Below, in pieces: positions 4,745-49,142 of a DNA stretch of 50,046 bases. Location of the stretch: IMG/VR virus record IMGVR_UViG_3300045012_000081, positions 1 through 50,046 of that record; one strand, written 5' to 3'. This DNA comes from a virus. Its lineage: Duplodnaviria > Caudoviricetes. Under the pieces are notes generated by a model, which saw nothing but the letters and a program-made list of their open reading frames with translations, ran no database searches and was not told where the DNA came from. Both the position numbers and the translations under genes were made by a program. Position 1 is the first letter of the stretch. The number at the start of each line of letters is the position of its first letter.

Positions 4745-5262
4745 GACTTCACCGCGAGAATATGGTCGACGTACTTCAGTTGAGGAGTAGTGTAAGTCGG
4801 CGTGATACCGGAGCCCGAGCCTGTATTTTGGATACTCGCAAAGCCTGTTTGAATATTCGCCGTGCTAGTCAGCGTCGCCTGCCCGCCCGGGCTTACAATA
4901 GTCCCCGCGCCACCACCGACGTAGCTTGACCCAGATGCATTATAGTACGTCAACGCATTCTGTGTGTGCGCATGGCCTGAGTCCGTATGAGTATGCCCTG
5001 CGTCTGTGTGGTTGTGCGCGGGGAGTTGGGCTATGGATAGTGTGAATGTGTTAACGTTAAATGTGCTGCCAAAGTTCCAGCTTGACCAGTTAGCTGAACC
5101 ACCACTTGCTCCACCACTTGCGCTATTGTACCGAAACGAGGTATCAGTTATCGCGCTACTCGTCCAGCCGTTCGGCGCCGTGGCTTGCGCCATTGGCCAG
5201 CTCGTACCAACAGGAGCAATTAGCGCGTCATATTCTCCTGCGAAGGGAAGTTTATTAAACAT
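4741..5262 (-). CDS. short tail fibre/collar-like protein
   Basis: APNGW and TLSIAQLPAHNHTDAGHTHTDSGHAH His-x-His metal-binding fibre repeats. Confidence 0.7.
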   Translation of the reverse strand: MFNKLPFAGEYDALIAPVGTSWPMAQATAPNGWTSSAITDTSFRYNSASGGASGGSANWSSWNFGSTFNVNTFTLSIAQLPAHNHTDAGHTHTDSGHAHTQNALTYYNASGSSYVGGGAGTIVSPGGQATLTSTANIQTGFASIQNTGSGSGITPTYTTPQLKYVDHILAVKS

Positions 5263-5264
5263 GA

Positions 5265-5591
5265 CTATTGCCCCGTTTGGCCGCTGATGGTGAGCCAGAT
5301 ACCTGTCGCGGCACTGGCATAGGCGTCGAGTACCTCCGCCGCGTTGAGCACAATCAGGCCGGTGAAGTGTACAGTCTGGTTTGGCGGAACAGACATGGCG
5401 GAGAAGATCGACGACGTCACGTTACCGATGGTGAGCGTAAGGGTCTCTGCCGCGCCAGCCGTGTTCGTGACAATAATATCTTTAATCAACGCCTGGGTAC
5501 TCGCAGGCACAGTATAGACTGCTGTCCCGGCACTCGTAGCTGTTACTTGTTGTGCAACAAACCGCGCGTATTGGTAGGTCGAGAAAGTCAT
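5265..5591 (-). CDS. small beta-rich virion protein
   Basis: Probable start MTFSTYQ; AVYTVPASTQALIKDIIVTN pattern typical of small phage structural proteins. Confidence 0.55.
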   Translation of the reverse strand: MTFSTYQYARFVAQQVTATSAGTAVYTVPASTQALIKDIIVTNTAGAAETLTLTIGNVTSSIFSAMSVPPNQTVHFTGLIVLNAAEVLDAYASAATGIWLTISGQTGQ

Positions 5592-35271: not shown

Positions 35272-35300
35272 TTGACAAACCTAGGGTTTTATCCTATCAT
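35272..35300 (+). promoter_or_regulatory. sigma70-type promoter
   Basis: TTGACA (35272-35277), a 17-nt spacer, then TATCAT (35295-35300). Confidence 0.75.
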
Positions 35301-35419
35301 ATAGATAGGGTTTGGCAACGGAGGTTATCATGTAACCCGCATCCGGGCGCGGTACGCTAACACGAGATTAAGTGAATGATACGCGCAACAGGCCCCGCGC
35401 GGTGAAGTCGGGGCCAAGT

Positions 35420-35491
35420 GGGTGGAGCAGGGGCAGTTTAGTGCTTTGGTAAGCACAGAAACTCTGGGTTCGAGTCCTAGTCCACCCGCCA
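35420..35491 (+). tRNA. atypical tRNA-like RNA, Thr(GGU)-like with 8-nt anticodon loop and shortened D region
   Basis: Acceptor GGGTGGA/TCCACCC+G+CCA; T arm CTGGG-TTCGAGT-CCTAG; anticodon arm GTGC-TTTGGTAA-GCAC. Confidence 0.65.
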
Positions 35492-35518
35492 ATAGGCAAG
35501 TGTCAACGGAGACACGTC

Positions 35519-37787: not shown

Positions 37788-37925
37788 TGATGCAGTCAAC
37801 CAAGATCTATCTCGATTTCTTATCCTACCGTGCGTGTATGCGCCGCGTAGGAGTCCCCTTCCGCGTAGTTCTCACCTTTGCCGAATACCGCGCGGACTGG
37901 CTGCACTTTTCTTCAGGAGACTAGC

Positions 37926-38315
37926 ATGCAAGAGTTTCAAGTTGGTATCTTCGCCTCGCTCGATAAAAGCTACGAGCGCCTCGAAAGCGGCGAATACGGT
38001 TATGTCGAGCGCATTACCTACCGCGTTCACGACTGGTGCAACGAGCACGGTATCGCGCACTACGCTAAAGAAGGGCACGTATTGGTCGAGATGTGTACTG
38101 TCCGGCTTAGCGCGCCAGTCACACGCCTCTTCATTGTCGAGGGCATGGTCTCTGGTCTCAAAACCAAACGGACAGAGCTCCAAGCCGATACACAAGCCCA
38201 AATCACCGCGATCGACGCGAAGATTAACGAGCTCCTTGCCCTCGAATACTGCCCGGCTGTGCAAGAGCCTGGCTTCGCACCGCGCCGACACAACGACGAC
38301 GTAACAGACGTTTAG
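37926..38315 (+). CDS. hypothetical protein
   Basis: AGGAG RBS; C-terminal coiled coil IDAKINELLALEY. Confidence 0.6.
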   Translation: MQEFQVGIFASLDKSYERLESGEYGYVERITYRVHDWCNEHGIAHYAKEGHVLVEMCTVRLSAPVTRLFIVEGMVSGLKTKRTELQADTQAQITAIDAKINELLALEYCPAVQEPGFAPRRHNDDVTDV

Positions 38316-38320
38316 CCCTC

Positions 38321-38395
38321 GGGTCGCTTAGCTCAGTCGGTAGAGCGTGGCCTGATCAGCTTGCGCGCTGGTTCGAATCCAGCAGCGACCCGCCT
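38321..38395 (+). tRNA. degenerate tRNA-like RNA, Ile(GAU)-like with broken anticodon stem
   Basis: GGGTCGCT/AGCGACCC acceptor; canonical D arm TAGCTCAGTCGGTAGAGC; T arm GCTGG-TTCGAAT-CCAGC; loop CTGATCA in a shortened, mismatched stem; no adjacent CCA. Confidence 0.6.
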
Positions 38396-38401
38396 TCCAT
38401 C

Positions 38402-38421
38402 AGCCTCCTTCGGGAGGCTTT
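38402..38421 (+). terminator. hairpin with C(UUCG)G tetraloop
   Basis: AGCCTCC-TTCG-GGAGGCT-TT directly after the tRNA-like element. Confidence 0.5.
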
Positions 38422-38461
38422 CCCACTGAAGGGGCCTCCTGCCCCAAACTAGGAGCATGGC

Positions 38462-39214
38462 ATGAAATTAGGCATCATAGGATTTTCACTCGCGCTAGCC
38501 GCTTGCGGAGGTGGTGGCTCACCCACTCCCGCGCCAACCAGCGCGGCGTCTACTCCACCCTCTCTTGTCATGTCGAAGCCAGGCCCAGCGCTATCCAACC
38601 TGTCCTCGGTCGTAATCGCTCTCTACGGCGATTCGACGATGTGGGGCACAACGCTCGTCAACGGCGTCTATACCCAGTCGCCAGACAACGAGCCGGCTCT
38701 ACTCCAAATAGCCTTCAACACCAGCTTTCCTGGCCGTGTGGCAGTCCTCAACCGCGCCGTACCGGGCTCTACCTGCCCAGAGCTTCTCTACGGCCAACCG
38801 CCAATCGCCCAGCCTTGGGCGGTGGAGATGGCTTCGTCCCCCGCGCAGATCGTCGCGTGGAACCAAGAAATCAACGATGCGTTCATCCCAGGCTACACCG
38901 ACGCGGATGAAATTTACTGCGAGTCCCAACTCGTCGCTATCGCGCGGACTTACGGCAAGACCGTTCTCATCATGTCCGGCAACCCGATTAACGACTCGCA
39001 CAACTCCATCATGTGGTCGTTGACTCACGACATTCTTTACGTCGGGCAGCAACTCCAAGTTCCCGTCATCGACCAGTGGGACACGATACTTAACTGGTAT
39101 CCGGATTGGCAAGCCGATCTGCCTGACAACATTCACCCCGACGCGCGGCTATACACCTACAAAGCCGGCGTTTCTTATAACATCCTTGAGCCCATTGTGG
39201 CCGGAGCCCTGTAA
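38462..39214 (+). CDS. SGNH/GDSL hydrolase lipoprotein
   Basis: Lipobox LAAC; block I YGDSTMWG, NRAVPG, INDA, DNIHP. Confidence 0.85.
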   Translation: MKLGIIGFSLALAACGGGGSPTPAPTSAASTPPSLVMSKPGPALSNLSSVVIALYGDSTMWGTTLVNGVYTQSPDNEPALLQIAFNTSFPGRVAVLNRAVPGSTCPELLYGQPPIAQPWAVEMASSPAQIVAWNQEINDAFIPGYTDADEIYCESQLVAIARTYGKTVLIMSGNPINDSHNSIMWSLTHDILYVGQQLQVPVIDQWDTILNWYPDWQADLPDNIHPDARLYTYKAGVSYNILEPIVAGAL

Positions 39215-39359
39215 TGGATATTCTCAACCGCATTCACTACGACGACATACGAGGGACTTGGAAAGTCTTCCTCGCTGGCAAAGACGTCGGGAAGGAATTC
39301 AAGACCTCCTCCGAAGCCTTTGCACACTTGCAATCTCTCCTCAAGCCCGGAGCCAAGCC

Positions 39360-39683
39360 ATGAGCCTATGCATCAAGACCGGCGCGGATCTGTGGATCGT
39401 CTCGCGCAATGCCGTTGTCCACTGCGATGCGTACTACGTCGCGCATGAAGGTGGCGCAGGCAACGAGCCAGGCTGTTACGTCTTTCGCCATGCGCAAGGA
39501 GCTTGGTTTTACCCCTCCGGCAAGGCGCGCGAACAATCCAAGGCCCATTGCCACTTTTGGCTCCTCGACGCAGCCATCGACGCACAGCATCGCATCCTCG
39601 AGCTCGAAACCGCTTACGTCATTGTAGCTCCCGAAGGTGACGTACTCGATAACCTCAACTGGGAAACCGGAGATCACGTATGA
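39360..39683 (+). CDS. hypothetical protein
   Basis: Probable start MSLCIKT; ATGA overlap with rtcB. Confidence 0.5.
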   Translation: MSLCIKTGADLWIVSRNAVVHCDAYYVAHEGGAGNEPGCYVFRHAQGAWFYPSGKAREQSKAHCHFWLLDAAIDAQHRILELETAYVIVAPEGDVLDNLNWETGDHV

Positions 39684-40867
39684 AAGTCATCCAAGAGGCT
39701 GGTCATCGCCCGATCAAAATCTGGACCGACAACGTCGAAGCTAGCGCCATGTCTCAGCTTCTCAACATGGCGCGCATGCCTTTTATCGCCTCCAATGGCG
39801 TAGCTTGCATGCCAGACGTCCACGCAGGCATTGGCGCGACGGTCGGAACCGTCATTGCTACTCATCAAGCTCTCATCCCTGCCGCAGTCGGGGTTGATAT
39901 TGGCTGCGGTATGAATGCTGTACGCTTGTCTCTAAAGGCCAGCGATTTGCCAGATAGCTTGCTTGCGATCCGCCATCAGATTGAGCGGGACGTTCCTCTT
40001 GGCAAGGGTGGCGCGCATCAGCCTAACCGGTTGCCGAGCATCGCCAGCTCCGAGCACGCAATGTGGACTGAACTCGAGCGGATTACTGTGATGCATCCTC
40101 TTCTCGCGAAAAACCATGCGCGGCGGCAGCTTGGCACCCTTGGCTCTGGCAATCACTTCATCGAGCTTTGCGTAGACGAAAACCAAGACGTTTGGATTAT
40201 GCTTCACTCCGGCTCGCGCGGCGTCGGCAACATGATCGGTCGCTACTTTATCGAGCGCGCAAAACGCGAGATGGAGCGGTACTTCATTACGCTCCCCGAC
40301 CAGGACCTCGCCTATTTCCCCGAAAACACGAGCGACTTCAACGACTACGTCGAGGCTATGAACTGGGCGCAAGACTACGCGCTCGAGAACCGGCGCCAGA
40401 TGATGAACGCGATACTTCATGCTTTGCTCGGAAAGGTACCGTCTTTCTCGGTCACGCACGAGGCCATTAACTGCCACCATAACTACACCACGCGGGAGAA
40501 TCATTTTGGCAAAAACCTGTGGATTACGCGCAAAGGAGCAATCCGCGCACGATCTGGTGATATGGGAATCATCCCAGGCAGCATGGGCACGCGTAGTTAC
40601 ATTGTACGAGGCCTTGGGAATACTGAGTCATACTGCAGCTGTAGCCACGGCGCAGGCCGTTGTATGTCCCGTACCGCCGCGCGGCGCCAGTTCACCATCG
40701 CGGACCTCGTTGCCCAGACCGCCGGAGTCGAGTGCCGCAAAGACGAGGCTGTGCTCGACGAGTTACCGTCTGGGTACAAAGACATCGACCAAGTAATGGC
40801 GAATCAAACCGACTTGGTCGAAGTCGTCCATACCCTCAAGCAAGTTCTTTGCGTCAAAGGAGCGTAG
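39680..40867 (+). CDS. rtcB: RtcB 3'-phosphate/5'-OH RNA ligase
   Basis: MPDVHAG, GVDIGCGM, GTLGSGNHFIE, HSGSRG, HHNY, RKGA, PGSMG, SHGAGR, YKDID.VM. Confidence 0.95.
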   Translation: MKVIQEAGHRPIKIWTDNVEASAMSQLLNMARMPFIASNGVACMPDVHAGIGATVGTVIATHQALIPAAVGVDIGCGMNAVRLSLKASDLPDSLLAIRHQIERDVPLGKGGAHQPNRLPSIASSEHAMWTELERITVMHPLLAKNHARRQLGTLGSGNHFIELCVDENQDVWIMLHSGSRGVGNMIGRYFIERAKREMERYFITLPDQDLAYFPENTSDFNDYVEAMNWAQDYALENRRQMMNAILHALLGKVPSFSVTHEAINCHHNYTTRENHFGKNLWITRKGAIRARSGDMGIIPGSMGTRSYIVRGLGNTESYCSCSHGAGRCMSRTAARRQFTIADLVAQTAGVECRKDEAVLDELPSGYKDIDQVMANQTDLVEVVHTLKQVLCVKGA

Positions 40868-40868
40868 T

Positions 40869-41852
40869 ATGAAAGACAGCCATTCGCGCCAATTCCCTTC
40901 CGTCATTGACTCAACGATGATCGCTGCCCTCGCGTGCCACCGTCGATGGGACTTTGCTTATCAGCAAAACTATATCCCTGATGCGCGCAAGTCCATTCAC
41001 CTCATGGCAGGAGCTAGCTTTGCAAAAGGCCTCGAAGTCATGCGTCTTGCGTGGTCACAAGGTTACTATGACCGACCAGTATACAGAAACTATGTGGACG
41101 AAGCTGGAAATGACCAAAGAGAACTGGACTATCATGAGCACTGCGTTATCGAATCTACCGATGACGCTCTCCAACTCGGCCTTGAAGCCCTCATGCTCGC
41201 CTACGACGAATCCGTGGAGCATAACACAGCTAAAACCCTCGATCGCATGTGTGGAGCCTTGGAATACTACGCCTCCGTCTTTCCCATTGACGATCTCGAG
41301 TTTGGCACCCTTTCGCGCATCAACGATCGCCCGGCAATTGAGTGGAATTTCTGTGCTCCGTTACCTGTTCTTCATCCCGAGACGAACGAACCGCTCTTGT
41401 ACGCCGGGAGACTTGACTGCATTCTGGATGCTTACGGCGGCCGGTATCTTACTGACGATAAAACAACCTCTAGCCTTGGGGCCAGTTGGGCCAATCAATG
41501 GGATATGCGCGGGCAGTTTGTCTCATATGCGTGGGGAGCATCCGAATCTGGTCTACAGATCGATGGTACGCTCGTTCGCGGTATCTCGATCCTCAAGACC
41601 AAGTACGACCATGCCCAAGCCATAGTCCACCAGCCTCGCTGGAAGATCGACGAATGGTTCGCGTCAACCTGCGAGAAGCTTCGCTACGCAATTGACCTCT
41701 ATCGGCGCGGCATCAACGTGGCTGCGTTCGGCGAGGCCTGCAACGAATACGGCGGTTGTGAGTTCAAAACCGTCTGCATGGTCAAGGACCACCCAGCGTG
41801 GATGAACGCAAACTTCGACCAGCGTAACTGGAACCCTTTGGAGCGTCACTAA
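40869..41852 (+). CDS. Cas4/RecB-like PD-(D/E)XK exonuclease
   Basis: N-terminal ACHRR, AGRLD, DDKTT, QFVSYAW, C-terminal CNEYGGCEFKTVC Cys cluster. Confidence 0.85.
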   Translation: MKDSHSRQFPSVIDSTMIAALACHRRWDFAYQQNYIPDARKSIHLMAGASFAKGLEVMRLAWSQGYYDRPVYRNYVDEAGNDQRELDYHEHCVIESTDDALQLGLEALMLAYDESVEHNTAKTLDRMCGALEYYASVFPIDDLEFGTLSRINDRPAIEWNFCAPLPVLHPETNEPLLYAGRLDCILDAYGGRYLTDDKTTSSLGASWANQWDMRGQFVSYAWGASESGLQIDGTLVRGISILKTKYDHAQAIVHQPRWKIDEWFASTCEKLRYAIDLYRRGINVAAFGEACNEYGGCEFKTVCMVKDHPAWMNANFDQRNWNPLERH

Positions 41853-43409: not shown

Positions 43410-43666
43410 GACGTAACAACACCAGCGGCATCGTTGGCGTATGTTGGGAGCCCTCCAACCAACGATGGTCAGCTAAAGCCTATAGCGGCGGCAAACGCCA
43501 CCTCCTCTACGAAGGCCCAAACTTTCTAACTGCATGTTGTGCGCGCAAATCCTGGGAAAACCAAGTGCGCAAAGGAGCCAATCATGAAACTGACCTACGA
43601 CGAGCTTTTAGCCCTGTCGTCCCATCGGCAGATCACCTCGCGTGCACAGCTGTCTGCTTACCTTGA
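43406..43666 (+). CDS. stand-alone AP2-like DNA-binding domain protein
   Basis: RRNNTSGIVGVCW....RWSAK...ACCARKSWE. Confidence 0.65.
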   Translation: MRRNNTSGIVGVCWEPSNQRWSAKAYSGGKRHLLYEGPNFLTACCARKSWENQVRKGANHETDLRRAFSPVVPSADHLACTAVCLP

Positions 43667-44192
43667 CAATGACGCGCTCGAGTGCTTGATCTGCGGCAAG
43701 TGCTTCATTAACCTCGGCGCGCATATCAAGCCCGCGCACAACGTCACGGTGATCGAGTACAAGCGCGCCTTCGGTATTCCGCGGCGTTATGGAGTCATCG
43801 GCCGCGCGATGAAAGCGCACCTTCAAGACCTCGCGCACTCTCCGCATCGCATCGAGGAAGCTCGCGCGCTAGGCCAGATCTACGGCCATGACAACGGCGG
43901 ATTGCATCTAACCAAGCCCCCTCTCTACAGCCAACAAACGAGAGGGAATAGCAAACCCAAGGTTTTGCCGACGATAAAACCCGAGGTTATTCAGCAAACT
44001 TACGTCGCGACGCGCAAAACGTTTAACGAGTGGGCCGAAGAGCAGGCTAAACTCAAGGGGCAAACAGAGCCTCCCGTAGATTCTATGAAGACCTACGACG
44101 AACACTCGGCCCAGCACCGACTAGCAAAGCTCGAGGGCCTTATGCTAGTTTTCTACACTGCCCTCAAGGAGTATTTCCGTGAAACTACTTGA
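43584..44192 (+). CDS. MucR/Ros-like zinc-finger protein
   Basis: DALECLICGKCFINLGAHIKPAHNVTVIEYKRAFGIP; AAGGAG RBS. Confidence 0.65.
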   Translation: MKLTYDELLALSSHRQITSRAQLSAYLDNDALECLICGKCFINLGAHIKPAHNVTVIEYKRAFGIPRRYGVIGRAMKAHLQDLAHSPHRIEEARALGQIYGHDNGGLHLTKPPLYSQQTRGNSKPKVLPTIKPEVIQQTYVATRKTFNEWAEEQAKLKGQTEPPVDSMKTYDEHSAQHRLAKLEGLMLVFYTALKEYFRETT

Positions 44193-47244: not shown

Positions 47245-47878
47245 ACGAGACCTAGAGAACATTTGCATCGCCCTTATGACCTCGCGCGACCCACAAGGGC
47301 GCCTTACTGCTTGGGGCTCACACCTCAGCTCCGCCATCTTCGGTGAGTTCATCAAAGAAGGCCGCGTAACTTTCGTTATCGAAGGAGCCAATCATGCCAC
47401 TCAAATCGGGCAAGAGCAAGAAAACAGTATCGAGCAATATCTCCGAACTCGCCCACGGCCCGCACCATGCGAAGATGGCAAAGAAGTTCGGCGCGAAGAA
47501 GGCGCAAAAGATCGACGTAGCGATAGCCTTGGACAAAGCGCGCAAGTCGGGGGGAAAGAGAGGCCGATAATCTATATCGCTGGTCCGATGACCGGCCTGC
47601 CCGACCACAACTTCCTCGCGTTCCACGAGGCGGCAGCCCACTACCGCGCACGTGGCCACGCAGTCCTCAACCCAGCCGAAATCAACACCGTCTCCGACGG
47701 CCGCCCTCTACTCGAGATCATCCAGCGCGATCTCTCTGCCCTCCTCCTCTGCAACACCATCTACATGCTGCGAGGGTGGGAGAACTCAACTGGCGCGCGA
47801 ACCGAGCACGCCGTTGCCAAGTGGGCTCAAATGACCATCATCTACGAGGGCGGTAATGTCAACCATCCACAGCTATGA
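47231..47878 (+). CDS. DUF4406 (nucleoside deoxyribosyltransferase-like) domain protein; start uncertain
   Basis: IYIAGPMTGLPDHNFLAF, VLNPAE, DLSALLLCNTIYMLRGWENSTGARTEH. Confidence 0.75.
   Translation: MLITERDLENICIALMTSRDPQGRLTAWGSHLSSAIFGEFIKEGRVTFVIEGANHATQIGQEQENSIEQYLRTRPRPAPCEDGKEVRREEGAKDRRSDSLGQSAQVGGKERPIIYIAGPMTGLPDHNFLAFHEAAAHYRARGHAVLNPAEINTVSDGRPLLEIIQRDLSALLLCNTIYMLRGWENSTGARTEHAVAKWAQMTIIYEGGNVNHPQL
47394..47570 (+). CDS. small basic phage protein, nested in the +1 frame (not in ORF track)
   Basis: AAGGAG RBS; MPLKSGKSKKTVSSNISEL...VAIALDKARKSGGKRGR, matching the common MPLKKGKS..NI.E...AIAL..A phage family. Confidence 0.7.
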   Translation: MPLKSGKSKKTVSSNISELAHGPHHAKMAKKFGAKKAQKIDVAIALDKARKSGGKRGR

Positions 47879-49142
47879 AACCAGCCACATACGCATCTCC
47901 GAGCACCGTCAGCGTCGTCACTTCGACGGGGCCGCGATCATCGAACTCGCCAATTCGATCCAGACCTTGGGTCTCCTCCAACCCATCACTGTCGCCGCGG
48001 GTGGAGAGCTGGTGGCTGGTGAGCGCCGTCTTCGTGCTTGCAAGCACCTGGCCGTGTTGGGAATCCCTGTGCGCTGCGGTAATGAGACTTATCCACTAAA
48101 CCAGGTCCCCGTGATCTTCTTCGACTTCGACGACGAGACGCGGCTATGGGAGGCCCAACTTCATGAGAATATTCGACGAGAAAACCTTACGTGGCCGGAG
48201 CGCGCGGCTGCTGAGGCCTTCCTTCACGAGCTACGTTGCCGCCAAAACCCCAAGCAAACGTTCGCGCAGACGGCTGCAGAGACGCCCAATACCAATGGTA
48301 CTGCTCTACGTGACGCCGTCATTGTTGCCGCGCATCTTGAAGACAAAGAGGTTTCAAGCGCGCCTACGCTGAAAGACGCAATGAAGGTCCTAAGGAAACG
48401 CGATGAAAAAGCACGGCTCAGCCGTCTCTCTGCTTCTGTCAATGTGGCAGCTCTGTCTAGCCTTCACAGCTTACAGCATTGCGACTTCCGCGCTGCTACC
48501 GTTGAAGATGGCTCGATCGATACGATTCTCACCGATCCTCCATATGGCATGGGCGCCCAGGCTTTTAAAGACGGCGGAGACCCTTCTACGGTTCTCCACG
48601 ACTATGATGACATGGATGGAGAAGAATGGCAAACAATGATACAGGAGTTTGCCGCGTGGAGCTGGGCCAAAACCAAACCAAAGGCGCATATCTATGTGTT
48701 CTGTGACATTGATAAATTCCCTTTGCTTCGGAGCCTCTTTAGTAATACTGGCTATCGGGTGCATCGCACCCCGCTTGTCTATGCGAAGAGCCATGCAAGT
48801 AGCCGGCGCGTACCTTGGCCTACTATGGGTCCTCGTCGTGGTTACGAGCTGGTCTTGTACGCGGTGAAGGGAGATCGCAATGTTAACGTCGTTGTGTCGG
48901 ACGTATTTTCTGCTGGAGAGAACGACGAGAATCTCGGACATGCAGCACAAAAGCCTGTTGGAGCTTACGTCGATCTTCTGCGTCGGTCTGTCGCCGCCGG
49001 AGATTGCGTGTGCGATCCGTTCGCAGGTACGGGGACGATACTCCCCGCGGCTCACTTACTTAAATGCCGTGCCATTGCGATTGAGCGTGATGCTTCTTTC
49101 CACGGGATCGCTTTGGAAAGGCTCGCAAAACTCAAGGAGTAG
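47856..49142 (+). CDS. ParB-like N-terminal domain fused to an N4-C/N6-A DNA methyltransferase
   Basis: ELANSI..GLLQPI, LVAGERRLRA, ENIRRENL; TDPPYG, HAAQKP, DPFAGTGT (beta-class motif order). Confidence 0.85.
   Translation: MSTIHSYETSHIRISEHRQRRHFDGAAIIELANSIQTLGLLQPITVAAGGELVAGERRLRACKHLAVLGIPVRCGNETYPLNQVPVIFFDFDDETRLWEAQLHENIRRENLTWPERAAAEAFLHELRCRQNPKQTFAQTAAETPNTNGTALRDAVIVAAHLEDKEVSSAPTLKDAMKVLRKRDEKARLSRLSASVNVAALSSLHSLQHCDFRAATVEDGSIDTILTDPPYGMGAQAFKDGGDPSTVLHDYDDMDGEEWQTMIQEFAAWSWAKTKPKAHIYVFCDIDKFPLLRSLFSNTGYRVHRTPLVYAKSHASSRRVPWPTMGPRRGYELVLYAVKGDRNVNVVVSDVFSAGENDENLGHAAQKPVGAYVDLLRRSVAAGDCVCDPFAGTGTILPAAHLLKCRAIAIERDASFHGIALERLAKLKE

Follow-up and report, generated by a model that had tools for sequence, protein, structure and literature searches.

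Why would a phage carry, some 1.3 kb upstream of a gene for the RNA ligase RtcB, what looks like a transfer RNA (tRNA) gene with a crippled anticodon arm? The question is raised by a locus of the IMG/VR record IMGVR_UViG_3300045012_000081 (Duplodnaviria; Caudoviricetes), analysed here over a stretch of 50,046 bp that we call the window and that makes up the entire virus record, with a completeness of 100% and a G+C content of 55%. The element lies at positions 38321-38392 and resembles a tRNA-Ile(GAU). A first-pass annotation of this DNA had coupled it with RtcB in a single module, in which tRNA-shaped decoys and a ligase would together counter the tRNA-cleaving defences of the host. A more modest reading has our preference, with about one chance in two of being correct: the element would be a by-stander or a relic, derived from a phage tRNA-Ile gene that had been acquired, no longer decoding yet still tRNA-shaped enough for excision, and RtcB would be a separate acquisition. 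We favour this reading because the element is absent from all relatives of the phage, because RtcB was inserted separately, and because the two share no context elsewhere.

As a tRNA, the element is well formed over most of its length. ARAGORN calls a tRNA-Ile(gat) at 38321-38394, and the Rfam model RF00005 aligns to 38322-38391 with 46.9 bits, above its gathering score of 29 (E = 5.7e-07 for the whole window). The acceptor has 8 bp in the ARAGORN drawing (GGGTCGCT facing AGCGACCC); in the Rfam reading it has 7 bp, and G38321 becomes G-1, paired to C73 (G38321:C38391). The D arm (GCTC and GAGC, a 4-bp stem closing the loop AGTCGGTA) and the T arm (GCTGG and CCAGC, a 5-bp stem closing TTCGAAT) are both canonical, so that acceptor, D and T stems have all 16 of their 16 pairs (7+4+5) of the Watson-Crick type, and the conserved GG of the D loop and TTCGA of the T loop are in place. 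The anticodon arm is another matter. Its strands GTGGC and GCTTG form, according to ARAGORN, just two Watson-Crick pairs and one G-T, with two mismatches, and a variable region of 3 nucleotides (nt) follows; beneath the loop CTGATCA the pairs are G-T, G-C and C-G alone. Rfam aligns 11 nt where its model has 13, with two non-standard pairs, and the stretch from position 26 through the anticodon arm to the variable loop spans 20 nt, against a canonical 22-23. No CCA end is encoded, the 3' flank reading C-GCC-TT. All this bears out the description in the first-pass annotation, which had also rightly placed a UUCG hairpin after the element (38402-38419) and an intact RtcB gene about 1.3 kb downstream.

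A decoding tRNA-Ile(GAU) has a 5-bp anticodon stem under a 7-nt loop, and the element does not have that stem. Position 37 is a purine in tRNAs, A37 carrying t6A in those that read ANN codons, and A73 is the discriminator of tRNA-Ile; here we find a pyrimidine, C38357, at position 37, and as discriminator a C if the acceptor is read with 7 bp, or a G if it is read with 8 bp. Judged from its sequence, an RNA made from the element cannot act as a normal tRNA-Ile decoder. Contigs from three other soil runs cover the element wholly or mostly without a single difference, and it is therefore not an assembly artefact. In one contig of run X5, 8 of 538 positions differ from the window and 0 of 66 within the element, which is too few to test constraint.

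The origin of the element can be traced with some precision. Its best match is the tRNA-Ile of Acinetobacter phage vB_AbaM_P1 (83.1% over 68 nt), its nearest full-length neighbours are phage tRNA-Ile(GAU) genes, and further close matches come from the tRNA-Ile of phage 133 and that of Pectobacterium phage PM2 (82% over the central 47 nt). Compared with phage tRNA-Ile, it has lost one nucleotide on each side of the anticodon stem, its variable loop is shorter, A37 has become C, and the discriminator is no longer A. The element is thus best seen as derived from a phage-type tRNA-Ile(GAU) gene. The 25-mer at its 5' end (38322-38346) is, among the matches listed, identical to tRNA-Val(CAC) genes mostly from Gemmatimonadota (Longimicrobiales); in these genes the T stem and the 3' acceptor strand also match, bar one T-loop base and the discriminator, and the anticodon arms are unrelated. 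We did not retain Gemmatimonadota as a host on this ground, because tRNA bodies converge and the phage has a G+C content of 55%. The 22-mer at the 3' end was found in none of 185,579 species genomes, which were searched for exact matches alone, and a 30-mer across the odd arm in no viral contig.

The distribution of the element and of RtcB was followed in 39 records related to the window, many of them fragments and 11 of them at least 90% complete: five viral records found through the portal protein (65-72% identity; three of these complete, at about 50 kb) and 34 further ones found through the primase (26-80% identity). RtcB was found in none of the five and none of the 34. The model RF00005 matched none of the five at E<=1, and one of the 34, where the single match is a tRNA-Gln. 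Within its clade, the window phage is therefore the sole carrier of RtcB and one of two phages with any tRNA match. Two relatives (G004 and G005) preserve the order of the locus: a homologue of the open reading frame (ORF) 37878, the hairpin, a signal-peptide gene, a homologue of ORF 39360 and a PD-(D/E)XK gene, with 21-24 nt between the last two, at the place where the window carries RtcB. The hairpin, with a motif TTYCCRCTGA, follows the ORF in G001 (twice), G004, G005 and the metagenome locus L163, and the changes in its stem among relatives are compensatory and keep the pairing. None of the relatives that carry it (G001, G004, G005, L163) has a tRNA between the stop codon of ORF 37878 and the hairpin. 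Simple decay, in the terms of the first-pass annotation, would show as a canonical tRNA-Ile in the corresponding place of relatives; they hold no tRNA there. Searches from the neighbouring genes agree: the 11 viral loci with relatives of the GDSL gene contain no tRNA (the closest, L002, ends 132 nt upstream), and the gene has no matches in genomes; a search with ORF 37878 found no relatives in viral contigs, and the five metagenome loci with a homologue have no tRNA in them.

Read against this gene order, the element is best described as some 75 nt inserted after the stop codon of ORF 37878 and before an older hairpin, and RtcB, by the same comparison, as a second and separate insertion, 1.3 kb further on and with a conserved gene on either side. 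Since both insertion points are flanked by conserved features, the element and RtcB are not one mobile cassette: they appear neither as parts inherited together nor as parts that moved together.

The ligase itself is intact. The predicted protein covers the whole of PF01139 (hidden Markov model positions 1-426 of 426, E = 2e-125) and matches phrog_1075 at 7.7e-151; the gene starts 1289 nt past 38391. The stretches MPDVH, DIGCG, GSGNHF, HSGSRG and SHGAGR align with the equivalent blocks of solved RtcBs, which we take to be those of metal binding and of the histidine nucleophile. Enzymes of the RtcB family act on 2',3'-cyclic phosphate and 5'-OH ends, and this one likely rejoins RNAs, chiefly tRNAs, cut by host nucleases, a function established for the family and inferred for this gene. 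Are such genes usually accompanied by tRNAs? Among the best 80 (58-78% identity) of 221 viral stretches encoding an RtcB, nine loci have, according to ARAGORN, a tRNA or a tmRNA at a distance of up to about 4 kb, and the other 71 have none, and none of seven neighbour proteins of the window matches any of the 80 loci. Whole records were searched with RF00005 for 49 RtcB-bearing phages (30 of the 80 loci and L053 were left out), with a tRNA above the cut-off in 17 of them, and in 11 of the 22 that are complete. Transfer RNAs are commoner in complete RtcB records than in complete clade members (11/22 vs 1/11, Fisher p = 0.027), but the excess vanishes at similar genome sizes (two of the eight complete RtcB records of <=56 kb, p = 0.55 vs clade), and genome size therefore confounds the association. 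The decoy and repair module does not hold as one unit, given the separate insertions, the absence of shared neighbours around RtcB, and the lack of any RtcB match in the five records with a comparable short-armed element, described below, only one of which is near complete. Another RtcB phage, L017, which has 44.8 kb and terminal repeats, contains the 3' portion of a CCA-ended tRNA at 5257-5322 on the minus strand (25.7 bits), about 85 nt beyond RtcB and on the opposite strand to it. We considered it as a further tRNA mimic beside RtcB and rejected it: only the 3' part of a tRNA is present, and it resembles an attachment site.

The history and fate of the element would then be as follows. The tRNA-Ile-derived sequence would have been gained by this phage lineage alone, in the 3' untranslated spacer of ORF 37878, and it would be transcribed along with the rightward genes, since it lies on their strand. 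RNase P, the enzymes processing 3' ends and the CCA-adding enzyme would, by their usual recognition rules, cut it out of the transcript, because the acceptor, T and D arms and the core nucleotides are intact. According to the identity rules of tRNA-Ile, the resulting RNA should be neither charged by isoleucyl-tRNA synthetase nor read on the ribosome, as its anticodon stem is one pair short, its position 37 is a C and its discriminator is not A. RtcB would be an accessory gene for RNA repair, independently acquired.

Table. Position of the tRNA-like elements, of RtcB and of the features that surround them in the window, with the basis of each assignment.
Feature	Position	Strand	Basis
First, weaker tRNA-like element	35416..35491	+	ARAGORN, Rfam
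Sigma-70-like promoter TTGACA, 17 nt, TATCAT, 11/12 matches	35272..35300	+	Promoter scan of sequence
Conserved ORF, phrog_2479, function unknown; stop 5 nt before element	37878..38315	+	PHROGs, synteny
tRNA-shaped element from tRNA-Ile(GAU)	38321..38392	+	ARAGORN, Rfam; top database hits: phage tRNA-Ile
Anticodon-like loop CTGATCA, anticodon GAT, C at position 37	38352..38358	+	Sequence, ARAGORN drawing, alignment to phage tRNA-Ile loop CCGATAA
UUCG hairpin AGCCTCC-TTCG-GGAGGCT	38402..38419	+	Sequence; kept in relatives
Second small hairpin GGGGC-CTCCT-GCCCC	38431..38445	+	Sequence; similar hairpin in relative L163
GDSL-like lipoprotein, lipobox LAAC	38462..39214	+	Pfam 27.4 bits, under cut-off 32.9; PHROGs
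Small conserved ORF directly upstream of RtcB	39360..39683	+	In relatives abuts PD-(D/E)XK gene
RtcB RNA ligase, 395 amino acids	39680..40867	+	Pfam, PHROGs, alignment with solved RtcBs
PD-(D/E)XK-like nuclease, far side of RtcB insertion	40869..41852	+	Pfam weak, below cut-off; 57-70% identity in G002, G004, G005

A second tRNA look-alike, weaker than the first, is found some 3 kb upstream in the same phage. Its 7-bp acceptor is perfect, it has a T arm, and a GCCA end is encoded, but the D arm is degenerate and the 'anticodon' loop has 6 nt; ARAGORN reports it as tRNA-???, and Rfam gives it just 17.7 bits (E = 3.9). The sigma-70-like promoter lies 116 nt upstream of it and ORF 35519 begins 27 nt past it, which places this mimic in the leader of a rightward operon; no DNA similar to 35272-35518 was found in relatives. 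It had been stated in the first-pass annotation that both tRNA-like RNAs of the genome are altered in the anticodon arm: this is true as far as it goes, and incomplete, the D arm of the upstream element being degenerate as well.

We must now consider what a mere relic would leave unexplained, as several observations weigh against the reading that we prefer. All the structural lesions of the 38321 element lie within the 20-nt anticodon and variable stretch. When four to six random substitutions or deletions were placed in a bacterial tRNA whose body is the same, 44-80% of the simulated copies were still detected by ARAGORN, and among those detected only 0.1-1.5% had every lesion within that stretch; the clustering is therefore not a product of biased detection, and it points either to a tRNA body held under constraint or to a single, local remodelling of the arm. 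The design also recurs. The pattern of a CTGATCA loop set between D-stem and T-loop motifs has 25 matches in 2.9 million viral contigs, including tRNAs with normal arms (L220, 44.8 bits, and L229), one with a 10-nt loop (L208) and two with a 3-bp stem (L210 and L225, 37.3 and 35.1 bits). When position 37 was left free in a second scan for short arms, 39 matches came up, of which three passed a filter for tRNA shape, all with C37: L263, with 45.3 bits and a 2-bp stem, has the 12-mer GGCCTGATCAGC in common with the window, and L256 and L253 are poorer matches, unscored by Rfam. A CUGAUCA loop on a stem of 2-4 bp with otherwise good arms is thus found in at least two unrelated phage lineages. In one pair of phages, G091 (L389; 69.6 kb, 99% complete, high in G+C) and G092 (L390), an element with a 3-bp stem and a CUGAUCA loop lies between the stop codon of an ORF and a gene for a 74-residue signal-peptide protein, and in G091 it is the sole tRNA match. 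The two copies are identical at 69 of 70 positions, against 47 of 70 in the upstream spacer, and the single change keeps a pair (U-A to U-G). Moreover, the two tRNA mimics of the window phage occur in the only RtcB-bearing member of its clade. On the side of a relic, degenerate look-alikes occur in the tRNA regions of other phages, with sub-threshold RF00005 matches in five of the 49 RtcB-bearing records and a cluster in a further phage, G089. Neither RtcB nor an integrase was found in the five records that hold matches to the short-arm pattern, one of which is near complete. In cellular genomes, no convincing tRNA shape was seen among the first 120 matches listed for this pattern, and a version anchored on the D arm had one match, which is not a tRNA. 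Three solid lineages in 2.9 million contigs, for a narrow pattern, are suggestive of a recurrent design and too thin for a family. As to the cluster of G089 (L388, 700-1340), it contains one well-formed body, that of L263, with a 2-bp anticodon stem, a CUGAUCA loop and 45.3 bits, and continues with several weaker look-alikes of 17-22 bits, together with ARAGORN calls that overlap one another.

The clustered damage, the recurring design and the presence of two mimics with the only RtcB of the clade keep alive an explanation closer to the original proposal, namely that the element has been selected as a mimic. Devoid of a cleavable or correctly placed anticodon loop, yet keeping the body needed for docking, it would soak up or block the nucleases or sensors of defence systems that target tRNAs, and RtcB would reseal the host tRNAs that had been cut. 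The two mimics and RtcB are all specific to the window phage within its clade, the near identity of the G091 and G092 copies would fit with selection, and phage tRNAs that escape tRNA-cleaving nucleases (tRNases), as well as phage ligases that repair tRNAs, are documented in passages of PMC10264068 and PMC7824862, respectively. However, the element and RtcB were inserted separately, no RtcB was found in the five records with short-armed elements, just one of them near complete, no relative conserves the element, and a nuclease that reads the anticodon loop would hardly be expected to bind an arm whose length is wrong. We see this explanation as the most serious of the alternatives, and nevertheless as an unlikely one. 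It may be pushed further: phages would repeatedly make and keep a non-decoding tRNA mimic with an anticodon stem of 2-4 pairs under the self-complementary loop C-UGAUCA, often as an orphan, acting on host factors that bind tRNA (defence tRNases, sensors, processing enzymes), and forming here, with an acquired RtcB, a two-part response to immunity based on tRNA cleavage. So general a claim strikes us as rather doubtful. Punctuation of the message is a less probable function, for which we would wager little: the fold would be an RNase P site that splits the upstream message from a cargo message starting at the hairpin and running from the GDSL gene to RtcB. The element is on the coding strand, 5 nt past a stop codon and 10 nt before the conserved hairpin, that of G091 and G092 likewise lies between the stop codon of an ORF and the ribosome-binding site of a signal-peptide gene, the upstream mimic of the window sits in a leader behind the strongest promoter-like site, and only the parts that RNase P requires are intact. 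Against this, relatives have the same order of genes without the element, the intact D arm and core exceed the needs of RNase P, and two contexts are too few to be set against chance.

The opposite possibility, that the element is still a working tRNA of a non-canonical kind, reading AUC and AUU or charged by another synthetase, would account for a score inside the 36-75 bits of accepted phage tRNAs, for the retention of U33 and of a 7-nt loop, and for the phage tRNAs in which a CUGAUCA loop sits on a normal arm. The G-1:C73 pair is, in most bacteria, a mark of histidine identity. Yet there are just three real pairs in a four-position arm, position 37 is a pyrimidine and the discriminator is wrong for isoleucine; we know of no working precedent in bacteria for this combination of features, and we deem a decoding role very improbable. 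Still further down comes the scar of an integration into a tRNA gene. Like such attachment sites, the element is a tRNA look-alike with a disturbed anticodon stem, and its 5' 25-mer is that of bacterial tRNA-Val(CAC) genes. In contrast to them, it belongs to a complete genome in which profile searches (PF00589, PF00239) and PHROGs reveal neither a tyrosine nor a serine recombinase, its 3' 22-mer is without exact counterpart in the species genomes, both halves of the cloverleaf are present, and it stands inside an operon. We rejected this explanation, which has hardly any likelihood left, on account of the missing recombinase, of the unmatched 3' half and of the complete cloverleaf. A kinship with Y RNAs had also to be considered, as these too are tRNA-like non-coding RNAs encoded near RtcB. 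Whereas YrlA has its tRNA-like domain set within a longer stem that binds Ro, the element has free acceptor ends of the tRNA type. YrlA and Y RNAs are described, in a passage of PMC4201824, as tRNA mimics of the rsr-yrlA-rtcBA RNA repair operon, and such RNAs are said there to be present in phages too. This candidate was dismissed: the whole genome of the window phage has no match to PF05731 (TROVE, Ro60), and no Rfam family other than tRNA matches the window.

The surroundings of the element deserve some comment. From the UUCG hairpin to the ribosome-binding site (AGGAG, 38451-38455, 3' of the second hairpin), the motif TTYCCRCTGA and the two hairpins form a conserved intergenic unit (38402-38455; also at loci L100, L101, L102 and L163) before a variable cargo gene, a unit that may be a terminator or a processing site. 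The gene that follows is the GDSL-like lipoprotein in the window and an unrelated signal-peptide protein in G001, G004 and L163, so that the slot behind the hairpin looks like a moron-type cargo site. As for the rest of the genome, the window encodes a DNA polymerase, a primase, an endolysin, a holin, a portal protein, a large terminase and a major head protein. A rightward block, mainly of small unknown genes, includes RtcB, the PD-(D/E)XK-like nuclease, a MucR-like regulator, a Sak4-like annealing protein and a ParB-methyltransferase fusion. The phage is distant from those that have been named: the best match of its portal protein reaches 40.9% identity, and that of Alcaligenes phage QDWS535 35.3%. 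Several soil metagenome runs have contigs with DNA of this phage or of close strains; no RNA run figures among the 13 soil-metagenome runs listed. The DNA polymerase (23-2345) is made of two overlapping ORFs, 23-1627 and 1593-2345, which match consecutive parts of one PHROG; relatives show two adjacent matches at the same point, and the split, or frameshift, therefore seems to be conserved. The MucR/Ros-like regulator (43539-44192) and the fusion of ParB-N with a DNA methyltransferase (47856-49142) are both kept in relatives, and the MucR-like gene may hint at an alphaproteobacterial host.

How does this locus compare with what is known of phage tRNAs? The element resembles ordinary phage tRNA genes in its descent from a phage tRNA-Ile(GAU), in its place on the coding strand among phage genes, and in having degenerate look-alikes in other phages; it differs from them as an orphan, in a clade where one of 39 records has a tRNA, outside any tRNA island and with damage confined to the anticodon arm. 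Phages are well known to repair or replace tRNAs under attack, as T4 does with Pnkp and Rnl1 against PrrC, or T5 with its own tRNAs against PARIS and the retron Eco7. To our knowledge, every tested case of phage tRNAs or ligases acting against defence involves tRNAs that still decode. Passages in the literature state that, in jumbo phages, tRNAs are supplemented by ligases of the RtcB and ATP-grasp types against tRNA-cleaving defences (PMC7824862), and that phage tRNAs evade tRNases through changes in the anticodon loop (PMC10264068). The window phage is similar in combining an intact RtcB with tRNA-derived genes, one of them with a loop altered at position 37; it differs in that its element should not decode, in that RtcB and the element are unlinked, and in that the case is known here from sequence alone.

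Phage tRNAs and RNA ligases are now regarded as weapons against tRNA-cleaving defences. If it were true that a tRNA body with a disabled arm protects the phage, an RNA-decoy mechanism would join the anti-defence repertoire, and part of the 'pseudo-tRNA' calls thrown out by annotators would find an explanation. If the element is a mere relic, as we prefer to think, it would provide a clean and datable case of a small phage gaining and losing tRNA and RNA-repair genes at separate cargo sites. The crippled copy of a tRNA-Ile and the separately acquired RtcB, brought together in one soil phage, hint at a contest over the tRNAs of its host.

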